The translations under genes and the position numbers were made by a program. Positions 4,220 to 25,494 of a stretch of DNA of 64,000 nucleotides are shown here, piece after piece. The notes under the pieces were generated by a model. It made no database searches, had not been told where the DNA came from, and saw only the letters and a program-made list of their open reading frames with translations. Every line of letters begins with the position of its first letter. Positions within the stretch are counted from its first letter, which is position 1. Source of the stretch: Callorhinchus milii (lineage: Eukaryota); the NCBI RefSeq assembly GCF_018977255.1, contig NW_024704742.1, positions 138,262,001 through 138,326,000 of the forward strand, in the 5' to 3' direction.

Positions 4220-5793
4220 GCTACGGCCCATCTCCAACCTCCCCTTTCTCTCCAAGGTCTTGGAAAGAGTTGTCGCCTCCCAACTGCGCTCTTTCCTCTC
4301 CACCCATTCTCTTTTGAACCCCTTCAGTCAGGTTTCCGTGCTGCTCATAGCACAGAAACTGCCCTGGTCAAGGTCACCAATGATATCCTGACCATCTGTG
4401 ACCAGGGCTCCCTCTGTCTCCTCGTCCTCCTCGACCTATCGGCAGCATTCGATACGGTCGACCACGCTATCCTACTCCACCGCTTGTCCTCCCACCTCAA
4501 CCTTCAAGGCACTGTCCTTGAATGGTTTAGCTCTTACCTTTCCCACCGTCTTCACTTCGTCTCAACGAATGGCTTCTCCTCCACCCCCCGTACTGTCTCA
4601 TGTGGTGTCCCTCAGGGCTCTGTCCTCGGTCCCCTCCTCTTCACCCTCTATATGCTCCCCCTGGTGACATCATCCGCAACATGGGTTAACTTCCACATGT
4701 ATGCGGATGACACCCAACTCTACCTTTCCTCCTCTACTCTCAACTCCACGACCACCGATGTCCTGACAGCCTGCCTGTCCGACATCGAGTCCTGGACGAG
4801 AGACAACTTTCTTCAGCTCAACGTGCGAAAAACCGAGGCCCTCCTGATTGGCTCACGTCAGCGCCTCCGCACCTCAGGCGCTGACACCATCAGCATCCAA
4901 GGCTGCACTCTCCACCTCTCAAAGCCAGTCAGGAACCTCGGCGTTTTGTTCGACCCTGAGCTGTCCTTTCTCCCTCACATCCGCACCACAACTGGCACCG
5001 CCTTCCATCACCTCCGGAATATCGCCAGACTACGGCACTACCTCACCCCTCACGCTGCTGAAACCCTGGTTCACGCCTTTGTCACCTCAAGGCTGGACTA
5101 TGGGAACTCTCTCCTCGCCGGCCTTCCCGCACCTCCCTCCACAAGCTGCAGGTCATTCAGAACTCTGCAGCTCGTGTACTGTCCCGCACCAGGCTTCGGG
5201 ACCACATCACTCCCACCCTCGCTCGCCTCCACTGGCTCCCCATCCCCCAGAGGATTGATTTCAAGATCCTCATCCTCACCTACAAGGCCATTCACGGCCT
5301 TGCTCCCTCCTACCTCTCCAACCTACTATCCCCCTACCTACCTGCCCGTACCCTCCGTTCCTCTGGCTCCGGTCTGCTCCACGTCCCCCGCCCCAACCGC
5401 CCTACTATCGGTGGTCGGGCCTTCAGCCTCTCAGCCCCGAGGCTCTGGAACTCCATCCCCCAGTGCCTTCGCCTTGCTTCCTCCCTTTCCTCCTTCAAGG
5501 CCGGTCTCAAAACCTTTCTCTTTGACCGAGCCTTCAGCTCCCCTCTCGACTCTCTTCCTCCTCCTCGCTCCCTCCCTTCCCTCCCCTCACCCTGACCATT
5601 TCCCCCTCCTCTCTCCCTCCCTTCCCTCCCCTCACCCTGACCATTTCCCCCCTCCTCGCTCCCTCCCTTCCCTCCCCTCCCCCTGACCATTTCCCCCCTG
5701 CTCGGGTCATGACCCAACTGTGCAGCGCCTTGGGACGTCCTCCTGACGTGAAAGGCGCTCTATAAATGGAATCTTGTTGTTGTTGTTGTTGTT
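4220..5793 (+). mobile_element. 5'-truncated young L2-clade LINE (RT C-terminal half, frameshifted)
   Basis: Motifs [64 protein letters not shown]. Pyrimidine-rich 3' UTR with short tandem units, a terminal stem-loop and a (TTG)n tail. Confidence 0.95.
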
Positions 5794-5968
5794 GAACCCA
5801 GCTCATGTTTGAAATTCTGTACACTGTCCAGTGCCTTGGGACGTCCTCTCGACGTGAAAGGCGCTATATAAATGTAATCTGTTTGTTGTTGTTGTTGTTG
5901 GGTTCAGGATCCACCTCTGTACAGCGCTCCGAAACGCTACCCTGCGTGTATAAATGTAAATTGTTGTT

Positions 5969-6338
5969 GTGGAATCCTGTAGTGGTTAGAGAACTCGTCT
6001 CGCAAGCCAGAGGACCTGGATTTGATTTCCGGGAATGGCAAAATGTTGGGTAAGTTTCCTTACTCCACACGCCTCTGTTTACCAGCAGTGGGTAGGAACC
6101 CGATTGTTAATCGCTTGGCGGATCGCTTTTCCAGGGATAATAATCCCTTCCAAAGAAATAAATTTGGTCACTTCAATCCATGACTGTTTGTGGGATGTCG
6201 CTGTGCACAATTGGCTGCCACGTTTGGCCCACAAAATATAGTCAATTCACTTTACAGTATATTCTATGAAGTGCTTTGACGTCTCGAAGACGTGTTAAGG
6301 AGCTATATCAAATGCAAGGATTATTATTATTATTATTA
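5969..6338 (+). mobile_element. tRNA/Deu SINE, long subfamily
   Basis: Degenerate tRNA head, internal gcctctgtttaccagcag...ggaaccc segment, Deu-like core tgtttgtgggatgtcgctgtgcacaattggctgcc, (ATT)n tail. Confidence 0.9.
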
Positions 6339-7799
6339 TGTCCTTCAGGGAAGGAATCCTGCCAGTTTGACCTACATGTGACTCAGCCACACACTCCGTG
6401 GTTTCCTCTTGAAACCTTCAAGCAAGACTCTTATCACATAACCCCCGTAACTTCGCATCAGCACAAGTTATGGACCAGGAGGTTGTTTCACATTCTTACA
6501 TTTGCCATTTGGATGTCAGTGTTGTGCACTCGCTCACACTCTCACCCCATGAGTTAAAACATTGTGCGTCAGCAAGGATTATTATTAAACAGCTGGGGGG
6601 GGGTTCATGTTGACAATTTAAGCTTCCCGGGATTTTATTGACACCCACTATTTTTCGACTGTTTTTGAAGAAAATTCCATTGTTGTATAAATCATCACAC
6701 TGCCCCGCACACTCCTCCGCAAAAACAAAATCCAGCCTGTTCTTTCCTGATCAAACCTCAAGCGCATGCCAAAACTCACTCCCCAAAGCACCACCTCAGG
6801 CAATCAGTGAGATCTCTCGCTGGTTCTCAGTCTCACCAGGGTCAACCTTCTTGTGGATAGAACAACAACAAATTACATTTACACAGCATCTGCCTTTCAC
6901 GTCGGGAGGACGGCCAAAGGCGCTGGACAGTCAGGGATTTGAACCGAGCAGGGGGTTGGGATCAGGAGGGGTGGAGGGCAGTGAGGGTGGGGGTAGGAGG
7001 GTGACCATAGGCTCAGTCGAAGAGTAGGGTCTTGAGACAGGCCTTGGAGGATGTGAGGGAGGGAGTGAGATGAAGGGATTGTGGGATTGAGTTCCAAAGG
7101 GTAGGGGCAGAGAGGCTGAAGGAACGATCGCCGCTGGAGCTTCCTGAGTGGAGGGAGCGGACAGGTCGATATGGAAACAGCCATTGCACTCTGGAACACT
7201 GCCGTGGTGTGTGCCTCAGACAGAGTCCTGTCGAGCAGAACCAGGAGGGCATCTCCAAAATGAGTTGGCGGTTCCTGGTTCTGATAATATTATTAATAAT
7301 TAATAATAATATTAATCCTTGCATTTTATATAGCACTTTTCATGTCTTCGAAACATCTTAAAGCGCTTCACAGAAAAGACTGTACTGTAAAGTGAATTGA
7401 CCGTATATTTGTGGGCGGCAGCCAATTGCACACAGTACTATTGCCTGGCACGAGTGATTGATATTCTGTGATTACTGCTCAAATTGAATGGTATAACTAT
7501 ATAAAAATGGCATGATTGGAAAACCAAATCTTTTTTAGTGGGTCTTTCGACATCGAGAATGTGCGGAGCCTTGGCAATATGGAACTGTACAGCTCTTATT
7601 TCTCCTGGAGACTCGTACAACCTGTACACCAGTCTGATCTGCAAGCGACAGCATTTGGATTAAATCTTAATCAAAATCTAATACGTTGAAGTGACCAATT
7701 TATTATTGTGTTTTTTTTAAGGATTATTACCCCCGGAAAAGTGAACCGCCTATCGACTAACAATAGGGTTCCTACTAGCTGCCTTTGCAGCATTCAAGC

Positions 7800-8200
7800 T
7801 TATCGCACCCTCGATCCCTCTAATCTCCCACACTACCATCCCATCTCCAACCTACCCTTCCTTGCCAAAGTCCTAGAACGCATTGTTGCAGGTCAACTTG
7901 GATCACATCTCTCCCTCCACTCCCTCCTCGAGCCCCTGCAGTCTGGTTTTTGCCCTGATACCCACAGCACAGACAGCACTTGTCAAGGTCAAAACAACGT
8001 CCTCTTTATCTGTGACCAGGGCTCCATCTGCCTCCTCGTCCTCCTGGACCTCTCTGCCGCTTTCGACACTGTCGACCATGCCATCCTCCTCCATTGGCCT
8101 CTCTTCCCTCAGCCACCTTAGTGGGACCGCACTCGCATAGTTCAAGTCCTACTTAACCAGCCACCTCCATTTCATCACAGCAAGTGGTTTCTCCTCCCGC
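7800..8200 (+). mobile_element. Older L2 RT fragment
   Basis: [26 protein letters not shown] and [15 protein letters not shown] in ORF 7708-8121. Confidence 0.85.
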
Positions 8201-8209
8201 CCCATAACA

Positions 8210-8515
8210 ATAATAAATAATATAATAATCCTTGCATTTGATATAGTGTTTTTTATGTCTTCTGGATGTCTCAAAGCGCTTCACAGAATATGCTGCAAAG
8301 TGAATTGACCGTATATTTGTGGACGGAACACGGCAGCCAATTACGCACAGCAGTGTCTCACAAACAGTCGTGGATTGAAAATGACCAATTTATTATTATT
8401 TTGTTTGGAGGGATTATTATCAGGTGTGTGGAGTAAGGAAACTTGCCTAAGGTTTCGCCCTCTGCCTGGAATTGAACCCAGGTGTCTCGCTTGCAAGGCG
8501 AGTGCTCTAACCTCT
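8210..8515 (-). mobile_element. tRNA/Deu SINE
   Basis: Reverse complement of the SINE consensus seen elsewhere in the window. Confidence 0.9.
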
Positions 8516-8854
8516 AACCATCACTTGTGGGATACCCCAGGGACCCCATCCTTGACCCTCTTCTTTTCCTTATCTATAGGTTCCCTCTGGGGGAAACTTC
8601 CAAATGTAAGCGAATAACACACAAATCTACTTTGCCTCCTCCAGCACCAACTCCAGGTCCCTGATGTTCTATCGGCTTGTCTGGCAGACATCATTATTAT
8701 TGGCAGACATCATTGGCAGACATTATTATTAGTATCAGGGCCTGCAGCTGAATATGGACAAAACAGAAGCTATACTCCTTGGCTCCCATCAAAGTCTTCA
8801 CTCCTCAACCTCCCTGGGCTCTCCCTCAGACTCACTGAACCAGTGCACAACCTA

Positions 8855-9388
8855 GTCATTCAGAACTCTGCAGCTCGTGTACTGTCCCGCACCAGGCTTC
8901 GGGACCACATCACTCCCACCCTCGCTCGCCTCCACTGGCTCCCCATCCCCCAGAGATTGATTTCAAGATCCTCATCCTCACCTACAAGGCCATTCACGGC
9001 CTCGCTCCCTCTACCTCTCAACCTACTATCCCCCTACCTACCTGCCCGTACCCTCCGTTCCTCTGGCTCCGGTCTGCTCCACGTCCCCGCCCCAACCGCC
9101 CCTACCCATCGGTGGTCGGGCCTTCAGCCTCTCAGCCCCCAGGCTCTGGAACTCCATCCCCCCAGGCCTTCGCCGCTTCCTCCCTTTCCTCCTTCAAGGC
9201 CGGTCTCAAAACCTTTCTCTTTGACCGGCCTTCAGCTCCCCTCTCGACTCTCTTCCCCCCCTCCTCCCTCCCTTCCCTCACCCTGACCATTTCCCCCCTG
9301 CTCGGGTCATGACCCAACTGTGCAGCGCCTTGGGACGTCCTCCTGACGTGAAAGGCGCTTTATAAATGGAATCTTGTTGTTGTTGTTG
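8855..9388 (+). mobile_element. Young 5'-truncated L2 nested inside an older L2 fragment (about 8530-9585)
   Basis: Near-identical to 5152-5793. The older L2 reads ...aacctag | taggcgtccgg... across the insertion. Confidence 0.9.
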
Positions 9389-10339
9389 TAGGCGTCCGGT
9401 TTGACCCCCAGCTGTCCTTCCTCCCCCACATTGGTCCCTGACCAGGACCGCCTTCTTCCATCTCCACCACATTGCCTGCCTCCAACCGTACCTTACCCCA
9501 GAGTCTGGCTCCGCCACTGTTAAGCGCTCTGAAATGCTACCCTGCGTGGAGGGCACTGTATAAAAGCAAGTTGTTGTTGTTGCTGCTGCTCAAGGTTTCT
9601 CTTAAAGAGAGAGAGAGCACTCACTTCGCAAACCCACACAGGATAGCGTCTCAGACATAGAGAATAAGTACAAGTGAGAAGAGACGTAAAAGAGAGATAT
9701 ATAAGATATATACTGTATATAATAATAATCCTCACATTGATACAGCGCCTTATCAAGTCTTTGAGACGTCTCAAAGCACTTCATAGGATATACTGTAAGT
9801 GAAGTGAATTGAATATACTGTTTGTGGGTGAAATGTGGACGAAATATACACATATAGAGAGATATAAGATATATACAGTGTATATACATATATAGAGAGA
9901 AGAGCGAGAAAGAGACAGACAGATCCCCTCAGAGTACAAGGTTGTAACTTGACATCCAAACTAAACAGACAAGCATTGACTTTTGCACTTTCACATTCAA
10001 TAAATAAACACACGAGGGACCAGAGGAAAACCCATCTAGTTGCATTTATCCAGAAACGTTCACAAACAGAGGACAAGCGCAATGATTGGTTCGCAGGAAG
10101 AAGAACTTTAACCCATTAACCACATCTTCCCATTATCCCCACTGAACCTCTTCCATCACAGCACTGGACTCTTTTGGGAAATGAGTCCAATGTCCTGATG
10201 TCAACCAGTTCCAGTCAGTAAATTCCCGCTGGTTAGAGAGATGTCAAGTCTGGCTCCCGTCTGCCTGTCCAGATGGATGTTTAAAAGATCTCAGCGGCGT
10301 CATTGGAAAAGAGAAGGGAATTTCTCTTTGTTCGGCAGT

Positions 10340-10610
10340 ATTAACACCTCTATTCCCCTGCTTTGTTGCAATCCCCCTTTGTTTTGCATCATTAACACCT
10401 CTTTAACCCATCATCCCCCGTCCTCTACCCCATTTTCTCCTCTGTCTTCCTTGCCCTGACTCCCCCCTCTCTGTTAGCTCTTAAAAGCCTCTCCCCCACA
10501 GCGTGCCCCAGTTCGGACGAAGGGTCATGGACCCGAAACGTTGACTCACTTTCCTCTCTCCATAGATGCCGCCTGACCTGCTGAGGGCTCCCAGCGACTT
10601 GGCTTTTTGA
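10340..10610 (+). mobile_element. Penelope-like element 3' terminal repeat with degenerate minimal hammerhead ribozyme motif
   Basis: Pyrimidine-rich leader followed by cGGACGA-agggtcatggaccc-GAAACG (10514-10540), i.e. CUGANGA/stem II/GAAA architecture with one core substitution. Confidence 0.6.
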
Positions 10611-12111
10611 GAACATAAGAAATGCTGGACGAAAAAAGACCAAGGTCCATCTAGTTCACCTTCCACCTTCCTGGTGGTTGCATGCACATATGTCCTGAAC
10701 TATCTAGGTACTAAATCCCATAATGTTATTTCTGAAAAGAATACTGTCTAATCTGTATTTGTGGGAATCAACATTTCCTGATCTCGCATTCCAAGCACAG
10801 CTATTCTGGGGGAGATAATCTCTCTCCACATCTGTTCAGCGGCTGTTGTCTCTTGGGGCAGAGAGGGGTGGCAGGGGGAGGGAATGGGGGAAAGGGGAAA
10901 GAGAGCTGGATGACTATTCGATAGACTTCGATAGATGGACAGAAACACTACTGGACTGAACTGACTGCCGGTCATGGATACTCAGTGACCTTTAGCACCA
11001 AGGTCTTGCAACATTTCCCTTGAATTGTGTTGGAATGATTTCTGAGAATCCTCAGACTCGGTTACCAATCTACAGTTACTCACAAAATCCCTTGGCCTCA
11101 CTCCCTTCCCTCCCCAACCCTCCCTCCTTCCCGGAGCCTCCTGACAAACCGTCATCCCCTTCCTCCCATGCCGACCCTCTTTGCCTCCTCTCACCTTACT
11201 CTCTCAATACTCTCTCATCCACAAGATACACAAAATATAATTAAATACAGTCAATCCACTTTCCGGTATATCCTGTGAATCACTTTGAGACGCCTCAACG
11301 ATGTGATAAGGCGCTATATCAAATGCAAGGATTATTATTGTTAAAAATAATAATTTGCTCACTTATTCCACGACTGTTTGTGGGACGCTGCTGTGCGCAA
11401 TTGGCTGCCACGGTTCGCGCACAAAATACACAGTCAATCCACTTTACAGTATACTCTGTGAAGCGCTTTGAGACGTCTTGAAGATGTAATAAGGTTCTAT
11501 ATCAAATGCAAGGATTATTATTATTTATATAGCGCCTTATCACATCTCAAAGCGCCTCACAGAATATACTGAAAAGCGAATTGATTGTGTAATTTGTGCG
11601 CGAAACGCAGCAGTCAATTGTGACACAGCAGTGTCCCACAAAACGTCGTGGATTTAGTGACCTAATTATTATTTTTTTTTCTTTTTGAAGGGATTACTAC
11701 TGGAAAATCGATCTGCCAATCAACTGACAACCATTTTCCTCCTAAACAGAGGCTTGTGTATAGAGTAAGGAAACTTGCTTAATGTTTTGCCCTACCCAGG
11801 AATCAAACCCAGGTCCTCTCAGTTGCGAGGCGAGCGATCTAACCAATATGCTACAAGACTTAATGACATGGTCGAGACTTCTGTGACCAGGCTCTCCGTC
11901 CGCATCTGAAACCACGCTGCAATCCCACACTGAAGGCTGCACAGTCACTCTCCTCATTGAGTTTTTCCCTTTGCTTGCCTGCTGTGAGCTGGAGTTCATC
12001 AGCCTTGAGAAACATTGTGTGACGTTCCAACGGGGCAAAGCTCGTCAACGCAGAGCTGGGGTTCGAACCAAGCTTATTCCTCTGGGAACAGACCTTTATA
12101 CTTGGATATAC

Positions 12112-13330
12112 TTTGCAAAAGGGAAGTGTTTAACTAATCTAATGTTTTGAAGATGTATCTGCAGGTTAGATGGGGGGAACCAGTAGATGTAGTATATTTA
12201 GATTTCAAAAAGGCATTTGACAAAGTGCCACAGAAAAGGCTATTGCATAAGGTTCAGGCCCACGGGATTAATGGGAACATATTATTGGATTGAATTGGAT
12301 TGAATGGATTGAATTGGATTGAATGGATTGAAGAGTGGCCAACGGGTAGAAAACAGAGAGTAGAGATAAATGGGTCATTCTCGAATTGGCCAGAGGTGAC
12401 TAGTGGAGTGCCACAGGATCAGTGTTTGGGCCTCAGCTATTTACAATTTACATCAATGATCCGGACGAGGACATTGAATGTAACGTATCTAAATTCGCAG
12501 ATGACACTAAACTCGGTGGGAGAGTGAGCTCTGAGGATGATGCAAAAAGATTGCAGCGGGACATAGATAGGCTCGGGGAGTGGGCGAGGAGGTGGCAGAT
12601 GGAATTTAATGTGGGGAAGTGTGAGGTTATTCACCCGGGTAGAAAAAATAGAAAAACAGATTATTTTTTGGAAGGGGAGAGATTAGATAGTGTTAGTGTT
12701 CAGAGGGATTTGGGTGTCCGTGTACACCGGTCTCAAAAAGTTAGTTTGCAGTGCAGCAGCAACTAAGAAGGCGAACGGCAGTTAGCGTTCATTGCAAAAG
12801 GTTTAGAATATAAGAGTAGGGAAGTCTGACTGCAACTGTATAGGGCTTTGGTGAGACCGCACCGAGAGTATTGTGTCAAGTTTTGGTCCTTATTTAAAAA
12901 AGGACATACTTGCCCTCGAGGGGGTGCAGCGTAGATTCACTCGGTTAGTTCCTGGGATGAGGGGACTGACCTATGAGGAGAGGCTGAATAAACTGGGGCT
13001 GTATTCTCTAGAGTACAGAAGAATTAGGGGAGATCTTATTGAAACATATAAGATTCTTAAAGGGCTGATAAAGTAGACACAGAGGGTCTGTTTCCCCGGG
13101 AGGAGAATCTATAACCCGGGGTCACAGTCTGAAAATTAAGGGTCAGCCTTTTAGAACAGAGTTGAGGAAACATTTCTTCACTCAGAAGGCAGTGACTTTA
13201 TGGAATTCACTCCCCCAGAAGGCTGTAGATGTCAGTCCTTGAACATCTTCAAGGCTGAGACTGATAGATTCTTGAAAAACAGAGGGATTAGGGGATATGG
13301 GGAGAGGGCGGGTAATCAGAGTTAGGTCGT
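12112..13330 (+). mobile_element. 5'-truncated CR1 LINE (RT C-terminus, frameshifted)
   Basis: VTSGVPQ, FTIYIND, SKFADDTKLGG, WQMEFNVGKCEVIH, LEGVQRRFTRLVPGM, RIRGDLIETYKIL. Confidence 0.93.
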
Positions 13331-13511
13331 ATGTTTTTGTGTTTCACTTTAGGGTACATCCTGTGAAGAGCTTTGAGACTATGTAGGTACTAAGGGAATA
13401 AATGTGTCGGAGACTTGAGCTCACAGCCCAGGCTGATGCTCCAGTGCAGTGCTTTGGGGAGAGAGAGAGAGTGCCACATTGTCGGAGACATCGTCCTTCC
13501 GTTCCGTTTGT

Positions 13512-13835
13512 GGAGTCCTGTAGCTCAGTGGTTAGAGCACTCGCTTTGCAAGTGAGAGACCTGAGTTCAATTCCAGGCAGAGGGCGAAACCTCGGGCAAG
13601 TTTCCTTACTCCACACAGAGCCTAATAATAATCCCTCCAAAACCCCAAAACAATAATAAATTGGTCATTTTCAATCCGCGACTGTTTGTGGGACATTGCT
13701 GTGCGCAATTGGCTGCCGCGTTCGCCCACAAATATACAGTCAATTCACTTTACAGTGTGTTCTGTGAAGCGCTTTGGGACGTCCTCCCGACGTGAAAAGC
13801 GCTATATCAAATGCAAGGATTATTTTATTATTATT
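13512..13835 (+). mobile_element. Full-length young tRNA-Ala-derived Deu-domain SINE (short subfamily), inserted into an older Deu-SINE (about 13390-14000)
   Basis: Head GGAGTCCTGTAGCTCAGTGGTTAGAGC (A box), anticodon arm ctcgc-tt-TGC-aa-gtgag, GAGTTCAATTCC (B box), Deu-like core, L2-type 3' stem-loop, (ATT)n tail. Confidence 0.95.
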
Positions 13836-14007
13836 CAGATGTTGAACCAAGGTTTTGTCTGTGCCTGTTTGGGTGGACGTTAAAGAAGAGAAGGGAGTTT
13901 CTCTTTCTTTCCCGGTGTCCAGGCCAACAATTCCCCAGATAAAATCACTCATCTCATGGCTGTTTGCAGGACGTTCCTGTGAGGAAATTTGCTGCCACAT
14001 TCAGCTC

Positions 14008-14560
14008 GGACTCCTGTAGCTCAGTGGTTAGAGCACTCGCCTCGTAAGAAAGATGACCTGGGTTTGATTCCCGGCCAGGGGAAAACTGTGGAAAAATTCT
14101 TCACTCCACATGCCTCTGATTACCCAGCAATAAATAGAAACCCACTTGTTAGTTGATTGGCAGATTGCTTTCTGGGGATAATAGTACCTTAAAAAAAGAG
14201 GTGGTCACTCAATCCACGACTGTTTGTGGGACGCTGCTGTGCGCAATTGGCTGCTGCGTTTCGCCCACAAATATACAGTAAATTCACTTCACATTATGTT
14301 CTGTGAAGCGCTTTGAGACGTCTCAAAACTATATCAGATGCAAGGATTTTGTGGAGTCCTGTAGCTCAGTGGTTAGAGCACTCGCCTTGCAAGCGACACA
14401 CCTGGGGTTCAATTCTAGGCAGGTCAGGGCGAAACCTTGGGCAAGTTTCCTTACTCCACACAGTCAATTCACTTTACAGTCTATTCTGTGAAGCGCTTTG
14501 AGACGTCGAGAAGACGTGAAAAACGCTATATTAAATGCAAAGATTATTATTATTATTACA
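14008..14560 (+). mobile_element. Tandem SINEs: long-subfamily copy followed by an internally deleted copy
   Basis: Two tRNA heads at about 14008 and 14352. The second jumps from ccttactccacac directly to agtcaattcac. Confidence 0.88.
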
Positions 14561-14624
14561 AGGATTATTAAAACGCGGTAGCCAATTGCACACAGCAGTG
14601 TCCACAAACAGTCGTGGATTATTA

Positions 14625-15092
14625 GAACATAAGAAATGTTAGACGAAAAAAGACCAAGGTCATTCTAGTTTGCCTTCCACCTTCCCGGTGGTCGCTGCAC
14701 ATATGTCCTGAGCTCCCTATGTACTATATCCCATCATGTTATTTCCTAAAAGAAAACCATCTTTGTTTGTGTTTGAAAGAATCAACATTTGCTGCTTCAG
14801 CCGTCTCCCTCGGGAGCCTGTTCCACAGGTTCACTAATCGCTCATTGAAATAGTGTTTGCATAGATTTGTTCTGAATTTCTCCCTCTGGTTTTACTATTC
14901 TGGACAAGTTGAAACAGACAGTCATGATCCAGATTGTTTGGCCCCTTTAGAATCTTAGACAGCAATCGTGTCGCCTCTCAATCTGCTCTTTCCCAGTGTG
15001 AACACACCCAACTTACTGAGTCGCTCCTCATAGTCCAGTCCCTCCATTCCCTCAATCATTTGGTTGCCCTCCTCTGTATCTTCTCGATTTCT
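14625..15092 (-). mobile_element. CR1 3' fragment, same family as 1022-1940
   Basis: Near-identical to about 1570-1941 and carries the gaacataagaaatg tail. Confidence 0.9.
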
Positions 15093-15115
15093 CCTGTAAT
15101 CTTTATTGTACAGCA

Positions 15116-15343
15116 ATGAAACGCTGCTTTGACAAAAAAGTCATAGCGACTGAATATGATGTGGGAGACTTGGTTATGGTTATGGACTTCGGGAAGAAAA
15201 GTCATCCTTTTGAAGCCCGATATAGAGGCCGCTTTCCCATAGTAGATAAAGCCAGCCCCTCTGTATATTTACTACAATACAATATAAAAAGGAGGAAGCA
15301 CACGAGATGGCATCACATTAATCAGCTGAAACTGTATAAGTAA
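15116..15343 (+). pseudogene. LTR-retroelement/endogenous retrovirus integrase C-terminal fragment
   Basis: YDVGDLVMV...FEARYRGRFPIVDKASPSVYLL...WHHINQLKLY matches the VGD-x-V / GPY-F-like / H-x-x-QLK pattern of integrase C-termini. It lies upstream of a PPT and LTR. Confidence 0.85.
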
Positions 15344-15383
15344 CACATAATCTGCTTGATCCTTTATAGAAGCAGAACCAAGG

Positions 15384-15542
15384 ATGAGAACGTGGTACTC
15401 ATTAGCAATCTGGATCATCGTGACACCTGCTGCATCAACACCCCTTCATGCACTTGATGTCACAAGTGTTCACGATTGTCCAAATGATAGTGATGGTAGT
15501 GCTGATCGGGTCAGTGTGGTGGGCCCGCCGACCAGTTCATGA
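15384..15542 (+). pseudogene. Truncated env-like ORF (52 aa) with signal-peptide-like start
   Basis: Splice acceptor cctttatAG (15361-15369) just after the pol stop, then ATG: MRTWYSLAIWIIVTPAASTPLHALDVTSVHDCPND...; located between pol and the PPT. Confidence 0.5.
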
Positions 15543-15737
15543 GCTACAACAATGAGCAACCCAGGCGGACCTAATATATTTAATTCGGAGGTGAGGGGTC
15601 AAGGTTTAAGCCTTTCCCCCTCAAGGTGGGGACTGTAAATAATGATTAGCTATGGATGATTATGTTATGTATGATCATGACTATAAGCGTTGATTCATAT
15701 AATTATGGGTAATGTATTCCCTGTTGTTTCATAACAG

Positions 15738-16226
15738 ATATTACAAGAGGACTATTCTAATTTGCCCAAAGCAGATATTCTTGCCCTGAGTGTGACCATC
15801 ACCCTGGCTGCAGGAGTGGAAAGACTGCCTCACAATGACATGGCCTGGTATTACATCTGAAAAGGCAACCTTCCCGCAATACCTTTGCAGTTGTCACATG
15901 AATTTTATGGTCTACTGAAGTTGATGGTTCATCCAAATCCAATTGAGAGGCCTTCAGCAGCTGCCCGGACCAAACACCCCACACTTCGCAGAACAATGGG
16001 AAAATCAGCAACACAGCTCCGCAAGGAGCTCAACGTAGAATGCTTCAGGTCTGCCATGTTGGAAAGGGAACAGATGAAAGCTCGGCTGTTGCAGGCCTTC
16101 CCTCGGACAGACCTCACAGAAGTCCTCCACCCTTGGAAGAAGGACCTCCTGCCAGGGAAGAAGAACCAATGGTTGGTGGGAGGCAGAAGCAATCGGTCAG
16201 TGAGCTTCAACTGTGGTGGCTACTGA
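15738..16226 (+). pseudogene. wee2: Processed (intronless) fragment of a Wee1-family kinase, WEE2/oocyte-type: C-lobe end plus C-terminal tail
   Basis: One frame reads [110 protein letters not shown]...LVGGRSNRSVSFNCGGY*. This matches the Wee1/Wee2 motifs ILQEDY-x-x-LPKADIFAL, HPDPERRPSA, QLR-x-ELN and RS-x-SF-x-CGGY. In-frame TGA at 15858-15860. Confidence 0.93.
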
Positions 16227-16285
16227 AGCCATCTCTGTGCAATGCTCTCAAGAAAGATTCGAATCTGATGAACCAGCTTACTCCA

Positions 16286-16490
16286 ATCCCTCCAAAACAA
16301 AAAACAATAATAAATTGGTCATTTTCAATCCATGACTGTTTGTGGGACACTACTGTGTGCAATTGGCTGCTGCGTTTCGCCCACAAATATACAGTCAATT
16401 CACTTTACAGTCTATTCTGTGAAGCGCTTTGAGATGTTGAGAAGACGTGAAAAGCACTATATCAAATGCAAGGATTATTATTATTATTAA
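16286..16490 (+). mobile_element. 5'-truncated SINE (Deu core plus tail) about 60 nt downstream of the wee2 stop
   Basis: Matches SINE consensus from aatccctccaaaac to the (ATT)n tail, in the same orientation as wee2. Confidence 0.92.
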
Positions 16491-17511
16491 TAAGGAGAAT
16501 AGGCAATTGAATGACCTATAAAACCCCTGGTCAGCAGTAAATGGAACCTAGTGGCCAGCAGGCCGGTACACACTGGTTTAGAGCTATCAGAGACGTTAGA
16601 CCAAGTTATATTTTCCAGAACAAAGAAACATGTCAGCAAACAGTTTCAAGGCCAGGACAGGGAGACTGGGAGGAGGAGATTAGGAGTCAGGAGAAGACTC
16701 ACGAGGGGCAAAGGAATGTGGAAGAACTCATCACTGAGGGGTACCAATACAATAAAGACCATGTGTGTTGGGACTGCTGACTAGTTCGTGAGCAGATCTG
16801 AAGGAAGGTAACGGTCAAAAGGTGATGGATGTGACTGTAAGAGTCAGTACTTATAGAAACTGAGTGAAGTTGTCACTGATTGGGGAGAGAACAGAGGAGG
16901 AGGCTCTGTGGTCACCCTTGCGAAGGGCTGACCTCTCCAACCAAAACCACAGAAACTCAAGATTGAGAACGACTCCTCGGAGGACGAGCTGGAGGGCTGA
17001 AGGAGCGAGAACCACACAGACTCTGAGTCAAAACTCAGGGACCAGCAAACCGGCAGCTCTTCCAGTCGATCACGCTGATCACTGGAGAACTCCGGACTGC
17101 AGACTTCAGGGGAAAGATCGGCTAAGGCAGAATAGCACAGACACACCAGAGGGAGACGGGGCAGCCAAGCGAGAGAGTGAGAGAAAGAGAAAAGGAAGCC
17201 TTGTCACAGACTCCAGAGACCAGTCAAATTTGACCGCTGACCCAGCCTCCTTTCCCAGCAAGCGTCTTCTACCAACCGTGGTGATTGACTGCTGGTTACC
17301 AGTAGGATATTTTCGCACATCCACACATCCATGCATAACGCGCCCTCTTTCCCTTAAAACCTTTGATATTATGTGATCCAAACTTATGATTTATCGAGCC
17401 GTATTCGGGATTAGTACGCGACCATATGTGATCTGGGACTGTATGTGATCTATTTAGTTTAAAGTCTAATGTTCATTTAACCCTTAAGGTATAAACCAAT
17501 CACTAACCCAG

Positions 17512-18024
17512 TGTTAGAAAATAAAATCTTCTTTTCGAGTTCCAATCAAACACAACCACTGTTTGCAACCAGAGTAGTGTTTATTAAACTCCAGGATCCG
17601 TCCAAGTTCCCGATGGGCGTGGGCAAGTGAGCACAATCAATAGATTCACTAACAGAACGATACTACCGCGTAATCCCTCCTCGTGGTCATCTACTTCTGC
17701 CTTCTAGCTCTCAGTCTTCCACCCACGGTAGGTACTGTCCTGGGCGCGCGATCTTGGTCTGGCACGGTGTCTTAAGCTTGTGTCCATCCAATTATGGTGG
17801 AGACATTAGGTCACCTGGCCAAAATCATGCTGGGTTCACGTGAACATCTCATGGGGTGTACGTGCCTCACACACACAAACACACTGTCCTTGAGACAGTC
17901 CGTTATCTTGTGTAAGTGCAGGGAGTTTCAGTCCAGCTGCCCACAACACACTTAACTTAAAAGTTAACCCGTTCGCAACATCTATTATGATTCTAACATT
18001 ATACAAAAAGTGTAAATTCTAACA
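17512..18024 (-). mobile_element. Solo LTR (513 bp) nested in the larger LTR
   Basis: Inverted termini TGTTAGAA...TTCTAACA and a 4-bp TSD CCAG (17508-17511, 18025-18028). AATAAA on the minus strand at about 17580 gives the orientation. Confidence 0.88.
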
Positions 18025-19111
18025 CCAGTTATTTTGATTGAACTTATACTACCAAAACGGTGTTGAGATCTGTGTGTGTATCAATTCAGCCGTTGCCGCT
18101 ACAGTTTACACAATCCCCCAATAAAGATGGTCACTCACTCCATGGCTATTTCTGGCATTTTGCTGAGTAGAAGATGGCTGACTCGTTCACCCACAAACTG
18201 AACACAGTCACTGCACTTTACAATATATTTTGTGAAGCGCTTTGAGATGTCTCGAGGCGCCATATCAAGTGCAAGGATTATTATTATTATAAATTGTTCA
18301 AGGCTTCTAAATGATGTGATAAGTCACCGGATGTCCTCCGGACATGAAAGGCGCTATACAAATGTAATCTTGTTGTTGTTGTATCTCAACAAGGTTATGA
18401 TTGTGGTATTATGTGGGATTATGATATTATTACTATTAAAGTCCGGGATCCCAGAGCCACAAAGCCATCGTCACTTGTGTTCCTGAAAGTGGCGTCTTGC
18501 CAATAATCTGTGCTCAACCCAGGACCAAATAAGGCAGCGATGGTGATGCATGGATGAATTGAAGGATATTACACTGCGGTACACTACTGAAATCTGACAG
18601 CCAAGCCAAGGCCAATTTCCTGAAGTGATTGACACAAAAAAGTCCCTGGAGGATAGCCTGACGGTCAGGGAGAGGGGGAAGAACAGTTAGTGAGAGTACA
18701 CGGTACCCCAATTACCCTAGTCCTCGCCAGGCTCCACTGGCTCCCTATCACACACACTAAACTCCGTACCCCATCACCCCAGCCCTCGAGGGTCAGTGAG
18801 GGACGTCTCGATGACGTGATGAGGCGCTATAACAAATGCAAGGATTATGATTATTATAAGTCGTTTGAGGCCTCCAAATGATGTGATAAGTTGCCGTATC
18901 CCAACAAGATTATGATTGTGATATTATGAATTATTATATATCATAATAATAATCACTCCGCCTCGCCCCCTCCTTAGCCTCCTTCAAGTCCCACCTCAAG
19001 ACCCTCCTCTTCGACCATGCCATCGGCCACCCCCTTCCCCTCCCTTCTCCCCTGACCTCAGCTCGGCTATACAAAAGTAATCTTGTTGTATTATTATTAT
19101 TAAAGTCCGGA

Positions 19112-21032
19112 CAATGAGGGTCAATAAGAAGGTAAGTGAGGAGGTCAGTGAGGAGATCAATGAGGAGGTCAATGAGAAGGACAGTGAGGAGGTCAGTGAG
19201 GGACAGAGAGGAGGTCAGTGAGTGATAGTGAGGGTCAGTGAAGAGGTCAGTGAGGAGGTCAATGAGGACAGTGTGGAGGTCAGTGAGGGACAGTAAACAG
19301 ATCCGTGGGGGACAGTGAGGGATAGTGAGGGGCAGTGAGAGTCTGTGAGGAGGTTAGTGAGGACGTTAGTGAGGGACAGTGAGTTCAGTGAGGGACACTG
19401 GGTCAGTGAGGAGGACAGTGAGGGTCAATAAGGGACAGTGAGGAGGACAGTGAGTGTCAGTAAGGGACAGTGAGGAGGACAGTGAGTGTGTTCTGTGAAG
19501 CGCTTTGGGATGTCCTCCTGACAGTGAGGAGGACAGTGAGGGTCAGTGAGGGACAGTGAGTGTCAGTGAAGGACAGTGAGGAGGACAGTGAGGGACAGTG
19601 AGGACAGTAAGGGTCAGTGAGTTGGTCAGTGAGGGACAGTGACGGTCTGAGGAGGACAGTGAGGGTCAGTGAGGGTCTGAGGGGGTCAGTGAGGAGGTCA
19701 GTGAAGGACAGTGAGGAGGTTAGTGAGGGACAGTGAGTGCCAGTGAGGAGGACAATGAGGGCCAGTGAGGACAGTGAGTGGGACAGTGAGGAGGACAGTG
19801 AGGGTCAGGAGGGGGACAGTGAGGGTCAGTGAGGAGGACAATGAGGGCCAGTGAGGGGGACAGTGAGGACAGTGAGTGGGACAGTGAGGGTCAGGAGGGG
19901 GACAGTGAGGGTCAGTGAGGGAGACAGTGAGGGTCAGTGAGGAGACAGTGAGGGTCAGTGAGGGAGACAGTGAGGGTCAGTGAGGGAGACAGTGAGGGTC
20001 AGTGAGGGAGACAGTGAGGGTCAGTGAGGGAGACAGTGAGGGTCAGTGAGGGAGACAGTGAGGGTCAGTGAGGGAGACAGTGAGGGGGACAGTGAGGGTC
20101 AGTGAGGGGCACAGTGAGGGTCAGTGAGGGGTGAGTGAGGGAGACAGTGGGAGACAGTGAGGGTCAGTGAGGGAGACAGTGAGGGGGACAGTGAGGGTCA
20201 GTGAGGGGCACAGTGAGGGTCAGTGAGGGGTCAGTGAGGGAGACAGTGGGAGACAGTGAGGGAGACAGTGGGAGACAGTGAGGGTCAGTGAGGGAGACAG
20301 TGAGGGTGAGTGAGGGAGACAGTGAGGGTCAGTGAGGGTCAGTGAGGGAGACAGTGAGGGTCAGTGAGGGGGACAGTGAGGGTCAGTGAGGGGGACAGTG
20401 AGGGGGACAGTGAGGGGGACAGTGAGGGGGACAGTGAGGGGGACAGTGAGGGTCAGTGAGGGGGACAGTGAGGGTCAGTGAGGGAGACAGTGAGGGTCAG
20501 TGAGCGGGGACAGTGAGGGTCAGTGAGGGACAGTGAGGGGGACAGTGAGGGGGACAGTGAGGAGGGGACAGTGAGGGGACAGTGAGGGTCAGTGAGGGGG
20601 ACAGTGAGGGTCAGTGAGGGAGACAGTGAGGTGACAGTGGCAGTGAGGGGACAGTGGGGGGGACAGTGAGGGGACAGTGAGGGAGACAGTGGGGTCAGTG
20701 AGGGACAGTGAGGGGACAGTGAGGGAGGACAGTGAGGGAGACAGTGAGGGTCAGTGAGGGGGACAGTGAGGGTCAGTGAGGGAGACAGTGAGGGTCAGTG
20801 AGGGGAACAGTGAGGGGGACAGTGAGGGGACAGTGAGGGAGACAGTGAGGGTCAGTGAGGGGGACAGTGAGGGTCAGTGAGGGAGACAGTGAGGGTCAGT
20901 GAGGGGAACAGTGAGGGGGACAGTGAGGGGACAGTGAGGGAGACAGTGAGGGTCAGTGAGGGGACAGTGAGGGAGACAGTAGGAGACAGTGAGGGTCAGT
21001 GAGGGGGACAGTGAGGGTCAGTGAGGGTCAGT
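19112..21032. repeat. CAGTGAGGG-based minisatellite
   Basis: Well over a hundred units of about 10-12 bp, (GA/GT)CAGTGAGGG, becoming more homogeneous towards the right. Confidence 0.97.
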
Positions 21033-21120
21033 GACGCTGTTTGCGTGATGACGTAGGAGGGGATGACGTGGCCGCGCGCAGTGGTTTCCCTTCGATGGAA
21101 GAATCCAGAAAAAATATCGG
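21031..21120 (+). promoter_or_regulatory. Putative core promoter island with three CRE-type motifs
   Basis: TGACG (21032), TGATGACGTA (21046-21055) and GATGACGTGGC (21062-21072, XBP1/CREB3-type), followed by CCGCGCGC. This is a CpG-dense unique island in an otherwise CpG-poor satellite. Confidence 0.6.
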
Positions 21121-22055
21121 GACAGAGAGAGTGAGAGTGAGAATAGAGAGAGAGAGTGAGAATAGAGAGAGAGAGTGAGAGTGAGAATAGAGAGAGAGAG
21201 AGACTGTGAGAATAGAGAGAGAGAGAGGATAGAGAGAGTGTGTGAATAGAGAGAGAGGAGAGAGTGAGTGTGAATAGAGAGAGAGAGAGAGTGAGTGTGA
21301 GAATAGAGAGAGAGTGAGTGTGAGAATAGAGAGAGAGAGAGAGTGAGTGTGAGAATAGAGAGAGAAGAGAGAGTGTGTGAATAGAGAGAGAGAGAGGGGA
21401 GAGTGAGTGTGAGAATAGAGAGCGATAGAGGATAGAGAGAGTGAGTGTGAGAATAGAGAGAGAGGAGAGAGAGTGTGTGAATAGAGAGAGAGAGAGGAGA
21501 GAGTGAGTGTGAGAATAGAGAGCGAGAGAGGATAGAGAGAGTGTGTGAAAAGAGAGAGAGAGGAAAGAGTGAGTGTGAGAATAGACAGAGAGGAGAGAGA
21601 GTGTGTGAATAGAGAGAGAGAGGAGAGAGTGAGTGTGAGAATAGAGAGCGAGAGAGGATAGAGAGAGTGTGTGAAAAGAGAGAGAGAGGAGAGAGTGAGT
21701 GTGAGAATAGATAGAGAGGGGGAGGATAGAGAGAGTGTGAATAGAGAGAGGAGTGGAGTGCAGTGATTTGGCGGCGGAGAGAGCGAAAGTGTGAGAATAG
21801 ATATGCAGACAGAAAGAGAGAGAGAATGTGAGAATAGAGAGAAAAAGAGCGAGAGATAGAGTGAGAATTGAGAGAGATAAGTGTGAGAATAGAGTGTGGG
21901 AATAGAGAGATAGAGAAAGATAGTGTGGGAATAGAGAGAGAGAGAGAGAGAGAGAAAGGTAGAGTGTGAGAATAGAGAGAGAGTGTGAGAACAGAGAGAT
22001 AGAGTGTGAGAATAGAGTGTGGGAATAGAGAGATAGAGAAAGATAGTGTGGGAAT

Positions 22056-22086
<31 letters not shown>

Positions 22087-22409
22087 TAGAGTGTGAGAAT
22101 AGAGAGAGAGTGTGAGAACAGAGATATAGAGTGTGAGAAAATAGAGAGAGAGAAAGATAGAGTGTGAGAATAGAGAGAGAGAGAGAGTGTGAGAATATAG
22201 AGAAAGAGAGAGAGAGTGTGAGAATAGAGAGAGAGAGATAGAGTGTGAGAATATAGAGAAAGAGAGAGAGTGTGAGAATAGAGAGAGAGAGAGTGAGAAT
22301 AGAGAGAGAGATGGTGTGAAAATAAAGAGTGAGAATATAGTGAAAGAGAGAGAGAGTGTGAGATTAGAGAAAAAAGAAGGAGAGAGTGTGAGAATAGACA
22401 GAGAGAGAG
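21121..22409. repeat. (GA)n-derived satellite with GTGTGAGAATAGAGAG units
   Basis: Direct inspection; it is the source of the spurious 488-aa minus-strand ORFs. Confidence 0.97.
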
Positions 22410-22491
22410 GAGTGGAGCCGCAGTGATTTGTCGGCGGAGAGGAAGAGGAAGAGGAGGAAGAGGAGGCTGTGTCCTGAGCTGCAATGTGAGT
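22410..22491 (+). other. Candidate non-coding first-exon segment ending in a splice donor
   Basis: Unique CpG-containing island ending CAAT|GTGAGT (GT at 22486). No downstream coding exon was recognised in the window. Confidence 0.4.
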
Positions 22492-22535
22492 CACGCTTTA
22501 CCTTCATTTATTGTGAGCTTCAGGCTCCGGGCACC

Positions 22536-23990
22536 GAGAGAGAGAGTGTGAGACAGAGAGAGAGAGAGGGGGGGAGTGTGACAGAGAGAGAGGGGGGGTG
22601 GAGGAGTGTGACAGAGAGAGAGAGGGGGAGTGTGACAGAGAGAGAGGGGGAGTGTGACAGAGAGAGGGAGGGGGGGGAGTGTGACAGAGAGAGAGAGAGA
22701 GGGGGGGGGGAGTGTGACAGAGAGGAGAGGGGGGGGGAGTGTGACAGAGAGAGGGGGGGGAGTGTGACAGAGAGAGAGAGGGGAGGGGGGGAGTGTGACA
22801 GAGAGAGAGAGAGAGGGGGGGGAGTGTGACAGAGAGAGGGGGGGGGAGTGTGACAGAGAGAGAGAGAGGGGGGAGTGTGACAGAGAGAGAGAGGGAGTGT
22901 GACAGAGAGAGAGAGAGGGGGGAGTGTGACAGAGAGAGAGAGAGAGGGGGAGTGTGACAGAGAGAGAGAGAGAGAGGGGGGGGGGTGACAGAGAGAGAGG
23001 GGGGGGAGTGTGACAGAGAGAGAGGGGTGGGGGGGTGTGACAGAGAGAGAGGGGGTGGGGGGGAGTGTGACAGAGAGAAAGAGAGACAGTGAGAGAGAGA
23101 GAGTGAGACAGTGAGAGAGAGTGTGAGACAGAGAGAGAGGGGGAGTGTGACAGAGAGAGTGTGAGACAGAGAGAGAGAGTGTGAGACAGAGAGAGAGTGA
23201 GAGAAAGTGTGAGACAGAGAGAGAGAGTGTGAGACAGAGAGAGAGAGAGAGTGTGACAGAGAGTGTGTGAGACAGAGAGAGAGAGTGTGAGACAGAGAGA
23301 GAGGGGGAGTGTGACAGAGAGTGTGTGAGACAGAGAGAGAGAGTGTGAGACAGAGAGAGAGGGGGAGTGTGACAGAGAGAGAGTGTGAGACAGAGAGAGG
23401 GGGAGTGTGACAGAGAGAGAGAGGGAATGTGACAGAGAGAGAGTGTGAGACTGAGAGAGAGAGTGTGAGACAGAGAGAGAGGGGGAGTGTGACAGAGAGT
23501 GTGTGAGACAGAGAAAAGAGAGTGTGAGACAGAGAGAGAGGGGGAGTGTGACAGAGAGAGTGTGAGACAGAGAGAGAGGGAGTGTGACAGAGAGATAGTG
23601 TGAGACAGTGAGAGAGAGAGTATGACAGAGAGAGAGAGGGAGTGTGACAGAGAGAGAGTGTGAGACAGACAGAGAGAATGTGAGACAGAGAGAGACTGAC
23701 AGAGAGGGAGTGTGACAGAGAGAGACTGACAGAGAGGGAGTGTGACAGAGAGAGAGACTGTGACAGAGAGAGAGTGTGAGACAGAGAGAGAGAGAGTGTG
23801 ACAGAGAGTGTGACAGAGAGAGAGACTGTGACAGAGAGAGGGAGTGTGACAGAGAGAGAGTGTGTGAGATAGAGAGAGAGAGAGTGTGTGAGACAGAGAG
23901 AGTGTGACAGAGAGAGTGTGTGTGAGAGAGAGAAAGTTGATAGAAGAAGACAGAGAGAGAGAGAGGGAGTGTGAGACAGAGTGTGTGAGA
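22536..23990. repeat. GTGTGACAGAGAGAG(G)n satellite
   Basis: Direct inspection; G-runs of 5-10 nt in the left part. Confidence 0.97.
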
Positions 23991-24049
23991 CAGTGGGAGT
24001 GGGGGTGGCAGTGGGGAGTGGCGGTTTGGGGGTTGGTTCGTGTGGGGAT

Positions 24050-25270
24050 GTGAACGGGTGAGGGTGGGTGACAGCGGGAGAGTGACGGTGCAGTGAGAGG
24101 GTGATGGTGAGGGGGTGACTGAGAGGGTGAGAGAGTGACAGTGTTGATGAGAGGGTGACGGTGAGAGAGTGATAGTGAGAGAGTCACAGTGAGAGAGTGA
24201 CAGAGAGGGCAACAGAGTGACAGAGTTGGTGAGAGGGTGAAGGTGAGGGTGAAGGTTGAGAGAGTGACAGTGAGAGAGTGACAGTGAGAGAGTGAGAGAG
24301 TGACAGTGTTGGTGAGAGGGTGATGGTGAGAGAATGACAGTGAGAGAGTGACAGAGAGGGTGACAGAGTGACAGACTTGGTGAGAGGGTGACGGTGAGAG
24401 AGTGATAGTGAGAGAGTCACAGTGAGAGAGTGACAGAGAGGGCAACAGAGTGACAGAGTTGGTGAGAGGGTGAAGGTGAGAGGGTGAAGGTGAGAGGGTG
24501 ACAGTGAGAGAGTGACAGTGAGAGAGTGAGAGAGTGACAGTGTTGGTGAGAGGGTGATGGTGAGAGAATGACAGTGAGAGAGTGACAGAGTGACAGACTT
24601 GGTGAGAGGGTGACGGTGAGAGAGTGATAGTGAGAGAGTCACAGTGAGAGAGTGACAGAGAGGGCAACAGAGTGACAGAGTTGGTGAGAGGGTGAAGGTG
24701 AGAGGGTGACAGTGAGAGAGTGACGGCGGCAGGGGAGTGAGGGTGACGGCGGCGGGGGAGTGATGGTGATGGCGGTGGGTGAGGGCGAAAGAGTGAGGGC
24801 GGGAGAGTGTGAGGGCGAGAGTGTGAAGGCGGGAGAGTGAGGGCGAGAGAGTGAGGGCGAGAGTAACAGTGTAGTGAGAGGATGACAGAGAGAGAGTGAC
24901 GATGAGAGCGTGAGAAAGTGACAGTGAGAGAGTTACGGGGAGAGAGTGAGAGTGACGGTGAGAGAGTGACTGTGAGAGAGTGACAATGAGAGAGTGACGG
25001 TGAGAGAGTGACGGTGAGAGAGTGACAATGAGAGAGTGACAGTGAGAGCGTGAGAGAGTGACAGTGAGAGAGTGACAGTGAGAGTGACAGTGAGAGAGTG
25101 ACAGTGTGACAGTAACAGTGATGGTGAGAGAATGACGGTGAGAGGGTAACAATGAGAGGGTGATGGTGTGACAGTGAGAGGGTGACAGTGTGAGAGAGTG
25201 AGAGTGACAATGAGAGAGTGAGAGAGCAACAGTGACAACGAGAGAGTGACAGTGGCAGAGAGAGAGTGAG
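24050..25270. repeat. GTGACAGTGAGAGA satellite with higher-order structure
   Basis: 14-mer units; a block of about 220-230 bp is repeated three times between about 24150 and 24720. Confidence 0.93.
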
Positions 25271-25494
25271 AGTTTTGGAGACAGCAATGGCACATAGTCA
25301 AATAGCTTTAACCTCATCATTTTAGTAATGAAACTGAGTGATGTTGTGGTCGGCCGAGTGTCTGTCGGGCTTCATCGATACAAGTTGTTGTTGCTGTAGT
25401 TTGGTTTGGAGACTCTCAGGACCTGGTGATGGGTTTGCGCTCGTGTCAGGCAATAGGACATCCAGAGAAACGTTCAAAGGACGGTGTCGCTGAC

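Follow-up and report, generated by a model that had tools for sequence, protein, structure and literature searches.

The Callorhinchus milii sequence considered here (hereafter the window, 64,000 nt) carries a piece of wee2 inside the long terminal repeat (LTR) of a retrovirus-like element. It is highly probable that this piece is a 5'-truncated processed copy of wee2 mRNA that landed at a duplicated target in an existing LTR, the likely enzyme being the reverse transcriptase (RT) of an L2-type LINE bound to a SINE tail in the 3' UTR of the parent. Features are on the + strand unless stated otherwise.

The wee2 fragment and its parent gene

The insert starts at 15736, and the wee2-derived sequence occupies 15736–16487. 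Its coding part (15736–16226; parent CDS 1211–1701) contains the Wee1-family frame that an earlier sequence-only reading had described at 15738–16226, with one premature TGA at 15858. The assignment to WEE2 made there also holds. The translated fragment is 89–90% identical to C. milii wee2-A, which is its best match; its best PDB match is WEE2, its closest homologues are WEE2 proteins, and a separate wee1 paralogue lies on C17. The parent gene lies on C5; its 11 coding exons, separated by GT-AG introns, translate exactly to P0002. A search with SSBP1, the neighbour of WEE2 in human, gave a single match on C13, which is uninformative for WEE2 synteny.

The window copy corresponds to mRNA positions 1211–1961, with 40 differences from the parent over 751 nt (5.3%). 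It comprises the last 14 nt of exon 8 and exons 9–11, joined at 15749/50, 15920/21 and 16066/67, and the three parent introns (696, 755 and 1667 nt) are precisely absent. Since it crosses the exon junctions 8/9, 9/10 and 10/11, the copy is processed, as had been supposed. The splice-acceptor-like sequence …cataacag before 15738 was rejected as a trace of a parent intron; it consists of LTR sequence and the AG of exon 8. The copy starts at residue 405 of 566 and lacks the ATP-binding N-lobe and the catalytic loop, as already remarked from the letters, and also the DLG motif. The coiled coil and the RSVSF motif that it retains are the outcome of 3'-anchored copying, not of selection.

The coding part is followed by the gene-specific start of the wee2 3' UTR (16227–16284), which is continuous with the parent's last exon, and by the 3' part of a tRNA-derived SINE, which lacks its head but has a hairpin and an (ATT)n tail (16285–16487). 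The sequence-only reading had taken this SINE for a separate unit, but in the parent the same headless SINE and (ATT)n tail lie in the 3' UTR, about 55 nt past the stop codon, with the same junction and the same hairpin-loop variant. The parent's last exon aligns unbroken to window positions 16065–16489 at 93.6% identity. Because this exon is continuous through the SINE, the piece is part of the wee2 mRNA and not a later insertion. Full-length SINE relatives with tRNA-Ala-like heads occur within the window. By description only, these heads fit the CmiSINE (SINE2-1_CM / SINE2B-1_CM) or SacSINE1-CM families, which are described as sharing their tail (PMC5499810).

The host LTR and the insertion site

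The TGTAAA at 15634, directly after a polypurine-rich tract (15624–15633; same junction in the related copy L023), and the TTTACA that ends at 18110 are the termini of one LTR family, in agreement with the earlier reading. The body of this LTR has at least 52 genome matches (40 of 66 candidates scored). The best 20 of the 52 matches were fetched, namely the window, its duplicate and 18 others, which include two pairs that are duplicates of each other. In 17 of these 18 the site is empty: the first 101 nt of the LTR (15634–15734 in the window, equal to the 5' end of the other copies) are joined directly to the equivalent of 16494. The two flanks thus co-occur in one element, as had been assumed. 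The remaining copy lacks the segment, and wee2 was found in none of the 18.

TAATAA is present once in 13 of the 17 empty sites. The window has TCATAA (15729–15734, one change from TAATAA), an extra C, the insert and then TAATAA (16488–16493), the right copy being defined by the empty-site comparison and overlapping the register of the tail. The duplicated target is short and has one mismatch between its two copies, and no LTR sequence was lost or replaced at the insertion site. It is from the empty sites and the target duplication, not from a clock, that the insertion is placed after the LTR. For the wee2 copy, the LTR served as a landing site and played no active part.

The sequence beyond the SINE had been described as non-repeat, which is incorrect, as 16494–18110 consists of the LTR and a second solo LTR. 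The body of the host LTR (16494–17511) lacks about 35 nt of the other copies just 5' of the nested LTR. The latter (17512–18024, no strand assigned, 513 nt, TGTTAG...CTAACA) belongs to an unrelated family, is flanked by CCAG on both sides and is followed by the 3' end of the host LTR (18025–18110). Its family has at least 46 matches (40 of 596 candidates scored), with a clear 4-nt duplication at four of the seven other copies inspected. Empty host-LTR copies measure 1170–1230 nt, and the window copy reaches 2.5 kb because of the wee2 insert and the nested solo LTR. A 170-aa frame at 16864–17376 has no Pfam match. Long low-complexity (GA/GT-rich) tandem arrays fill window positions 19000–25300.

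Upstream of the LTR, an integrase-like frame spans 15020–15343; its match to SH3_Tf2-1 is weak (E=0.014, under the cut-off). Its part at 15111–15343, about 90% identical to copy L023, is a broken relic, the 3' end of pol/integrase in an LTR element truncated on its 5' side. About 290 nt separate the integrase end from the LTR. The locus has no env, and no 5' LTR of the host element was found nearby. Copy L023 has an integrase before its LTR and a primer-site-like sequence after it. Among PDB chains, the RT of its element is nearest to foamy-virus Pol; for a family member, this match has an E-value of 1.8e-26, and the next group follows at 3.6e-13. Foamy-like endogenous retroviruses are described from fish, C. 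milii included (PMC5512871). The family shares with them an RT nearest to foamy Pol among PDB chains; the locus differs in lacking env, and this likeness is a ranking among PDB chains, with no claim of membership. From such sequence comparison, the label retrovirus-like is fair.

Two further loci, L094 (G000:C1:133.516-133.526 Mb) and L040, are broken relics of the host element; their RT is closest to foamy-virus Pol, and they have a weak integrase-core match. The copies L025 and L026 were considered as paired LTRs of a full element and rejected, being a tandem duplication with a sulfotransferase-like frame in between. This intronless frame of 351 aa, recognised by eye (L093, 4932–5987), lies between the duplicated LTR copies on C20.

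The sole second locus with LTR and wee2 among the matches listed is an inverted duplicate covering window positions 5793–24430. It lies at G000:C1 about 138,236,000-138,254,000, is at least 18 kb long and is 93–99% identical to the window. A comparison of the two over 8.5 kb gave 43 substitutions and 86 gaps, of which 78 are one base long; in the upstream arm, 39 of 60 gaps are in homopolymers. This second locus goes back to a young segmental duplication or to duplication in the assembly, and not to a further proviral integration.

The earlier reading had left two origins open, a retrocopy that landed in the LTR later and a retroviral transduction into U3 in the manner of a v-onc gene. The first stands. 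The second, in which the element would have acquired the wee2 transcript through template switching, is extremely improbable, although the insert lies some 100 nt into the LTR of an element whose RT ranks nearest to foamy-virus Pol, LTR-mediated retroposition is documented in fish (PMC5131818), and dating does not separate LTR and insert. Against it stand the 18 other LTR copies fetched, whose lack of wee2 is the outcome that the earlier reading had named as refuting transduction, a target that is duplicated with no LTR sequence replaced, a tail of non-LTR type, the origin of the second LTR-wee2 locus by duplication, a frame that decays neutrally, and an insert end shared with 19 other retrocopy loci. 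Germline capture by a retrovirus, which that reading had considered, is likewise contradicted by the position of this insert as one of about 20 scattered copies that end at the parent's SINE tail. At the 18 other wee2 retrocopy loci no LTR flanks were found, none coinciding with the LTR matches listed.

A family of wee2 retrocopies ending at one SINE tail

The wee2 coding fragment was found at 23 places in the genome (all 23 candidates scored): the window, its near-identical duplicate, three parent exons and 18 other loci. The parental gene that the earlier reading had called for is thus the one on C5, and it is accompanied by 20 retrocopy loci. All 20 end between mRNA positions 1956 and 1969, the parent's tail ending at 1961, while they start anywhere between 475 and 1718. 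They all terminate in (ATT)n, with a poly(A) tract at none. In 18 of the 20 tails compared, the hairpin loop is of the parent's variant or close to it, unlike in free SINE and LINE tails; of the other two, one is a second, doubled tail and one belongs to a copy without the 5' arm. The 946 nt of parent UTR that lie 3' of the tail have no genome copies except one 148-nt match of 76%. In automatic calls, the target-site duplications of most other wee2 copies are short or ambiguous.

Several copies show individual features. Behind the wee2 copy at L014 (C2:121.077 Mb) lies a further SINE tail with a different loop type, a case of tail doubling. The copy at L044 (C5:51.889 Mb) jumps from mRNA position 1314 to 1916 and keeps the tail end, and that at L090 (C2:43.372 Mb) jumps from 778 to 1699 and from 1850 to 1909. 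Both retain the last 45–55 nt of the tail, their gaps being either RT jumps or later deletions. L056 / L092 (G000:C4:52738344-52739165, - strand) contains a stop-free wee2 frame for residues 289–566 with 92% identity. A 339-aa UniRef entry (P0001) may derive from a retrocopy like this one.

The tail of the parent is identical to the tail of a LINE in the window at 52 of 70 positions and has the same predicted hairpin, one pair of the stem having changed in a compensatory way. Compared with shuffled sequences, hairpin stability gave z values of -0.52 for the parent, +0.63 for the window copy and -2.14 for the LINE tail in the window; the parent's hairpin in its present form does not exceed the shuffles in stability. 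At one position of the stem, the parent's tail (L041, about 2953–3030) now has A, against G in 10 of 11 copies, which weakens the stem; the low-divergence copy L007 shares this A.

The parent UTR has an AATAAA at position 80, within the SINE piece, and the next poly(A) hexamer follows at 1188. A contig from a single run, X4, ends 17 nt beyond the latter. There is a weak hint that the SINE tail is internal to the parent mRNA; the X4 contig over the tail has 26 letters on one side and was therefore not counted as bridging.

Ordinary retroposition of the poly(A) type (L1-like, relaxed) would have copied an abundant maternal mRNA that ended, or was primed, at the A/U-rich SINE tail without specific recognition. 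WEE2 is an oocyte transcript, whose abundance alone favours copies, and both the AATAAA inside the SINE piece and the weak hairpin of the present parent fit such a route. It is nevertheless decidedly unlikely, as the (ATT)n ends without poly(A) speak against it and the AATAAA would cut the transcript upstream of the tail. The control genes gave no retrocopies either: wee1 (last exon and UTR) matched itself once, and RPL21 had one match, a single exon. These two were the usable controls, a GAPDH search having given no candidate, not even the parent.

Decay, age and genealogy

The frame of the window copy is disabled and decaying neutrally. Polarised with 10 other copies, its branch has 14 non-synonymous and two synonymous changes. 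Two of these, common to other copies and with the same or a similar residue in sharks, were reassigned to the parent, which leaves 12 to 2 (p=0.54 against neutrality, p=0.0005 against an omega of 0.2). The TGA at 15858 had been attributed to deamination of CGA. The comparison of parent and copy shows AGA>TGA instead, an A>T change, with A in the parent and in all six informative other copies.

Private changes number 17 in 735 positions of the retrocopy and 15 in 584 of the LTR (p=0.86), and dating does not separate the two events. The closest of the 14 LTR copies compared differs by 9.8%, against an end branch of 0.024 for the retrocopy. The tree (11 rows) is star-like and has no starred fork; in it the parent falls together with the two copies of lowest divergence (support 80/81). 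The window copy keeps shark-like residues where the parent has changed. The star-like tree and these residues are the pattern that repeated copying from an evolving parent over time predicts, to judge from the sequences.

The copies could instead go back to one early wee2-SINE chimera acting as a master element, or to an independent template switch from SINE to mRNA for each copy. Both are very improbable. The window, L092, L004 and L008 do have a few alleles in common that the parent lacks, but these form a nested pattern and in several cases agree with the residues of sharks. The grouping of the parent with the two least diverged copies argues against a master, and independent switches would not give the parent's own UTR-SINE junction and loop variant.

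Proposed mechanism

Stringent LINEs of the L2 type are described as requiring a 3' stem-loop (PMC4176376, PMC3747384), and CmiSINE tails are given as 78.6% similar to L2-2_CM (PMC5499810). The enzyme that produced the wee2 copies would accordingly be L2-2_CM or a relative; this partner is suggested by the homology of the tail to a LINE tail. In the proposed sequence of events, the L2 ORF2 protein would have bound the SINE tail within the maternal wee2 mRNA. Reverse transcription would then have begun within the transcript, at the (AUU)n repeat some 950 nt short of the likely poly(A) site, by priming on an AT-rich target that resembles the tail. Premature termination may have given the copies their nested 5' ends. 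WEE2 is expressed in oocytes, and it is there that the copying would have taken place.

Possible transcription of the window copy

The RNA evidence consists of contigs from runs guessed to be RNA, none of which is on record as such. Contigs from X1 and X2, from two studies, match 15736–16138 without a difference, and an X3 contig has eight listed window alleles, six of them private, including the stop. These matches are a weak hint that the window copy or its duplicate is transcribed. Positions 15111–15554 are covered in X11 and X12 and have no cover in X1 and X2, where missing cover is no proof. Among the contigs listed, none bridges the junction between LTR and wee2. An ATG at 15924 opens a frame of 100 codons behind four upstream ATGs, with no sign of selection. 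Runs likewise guessed to be RNA give deep cover of other copies of both LTR families at 16887–17219 and 17553–18107.

Relation to known systems and significance

The wee2 insert is classed as a processed pseudogene and works like the mobilisation of SINEs by stringent LINEs. With the L2-clade systems described for CmiSINEs and SacSINE1-CM with L2-2_CM (PMC5499810) and for ZfL2 (PMC4176376), it shares a tRNA-Ala-type SINE, a LINE-like hairpin and a tandem-repeat tail, and the wee2 copies are likewise 3' co-terminal and 5'-truncated. It differs in that a spliced host mRNA with a headless SINE piece in its UTR was mobilised and that priming is likely internal to this mRNA. Intron loss, 5' truncation, target duplication, a germline-expressed parent and neutral decay are common to it and to L1 processed pseudogenes as described (PMC5470649, PMC3747384). 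Unlike these, the wee2 copies have no poly(A) and do not extend past the SINE tail into the distal UTR, and the control genes are without copies.

An mRNA fragment between LTR-element sequences also recalls LTR-mediated retroposition or transduction (PMC5131818, where FAM8A1-HERV-K and Bs1 are named), whereas the wee2 target was duplicated and not replaced, the tail is of non-LTR type, and the element has not propagated the insert. Retrocopies inserted into pre-existing LTR elements are filtered out in that study, as described (PMC5131818). Platypus snoRTE chimeras (cited in PMC5499810) offer another parallel, in that RNA foreign to the element rides on a retroposon tail.

The same holds for SVA elements with 5' transductions. 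In contrast to both, the source of the wee2 copies stays the host gene itself, and the cargo consists of protein-coding exons. No published report of a wee2 retrocopy family was found in the literature covered, most subscription journals lying outside this coverage.

The locus itself is a dead retrocopy, and the idea of an oncogene-like capture by a fish retrovirus fails. Its interest lies in the route by which the copies arose. LINEs that recognise their own tail are reviewed as limiting which cellular RNAs are retrotransposed (PMC5470649). A single SINE insertion in the UTR appears to have lifted this limit for wee2 mRNA, repeatedly and over time. As a wider proposal, to which we give slightly less than an even chance, wherever stringent L2/CR1 LINEs prevail, a germline mRNA would be licensed for retroposition by a SINE tail lying in sense orientation in its 3' UTR. 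wee2 would have given rise to its roughly 20 copies by internal priming, and the principle may explain most retrocopies in this genome; the present copy, which lies close to the beginning of an LTR, may be transcribed and could encode a 100-residue C-terminal Wee2 peptide. As 138 C. milii genes are reported to carry such SINEs in their 3' UTRs (PMC5499810), the idea can be tested genome-wide. The wee2 copies, for their part, preserve older states of the wee2 gene.
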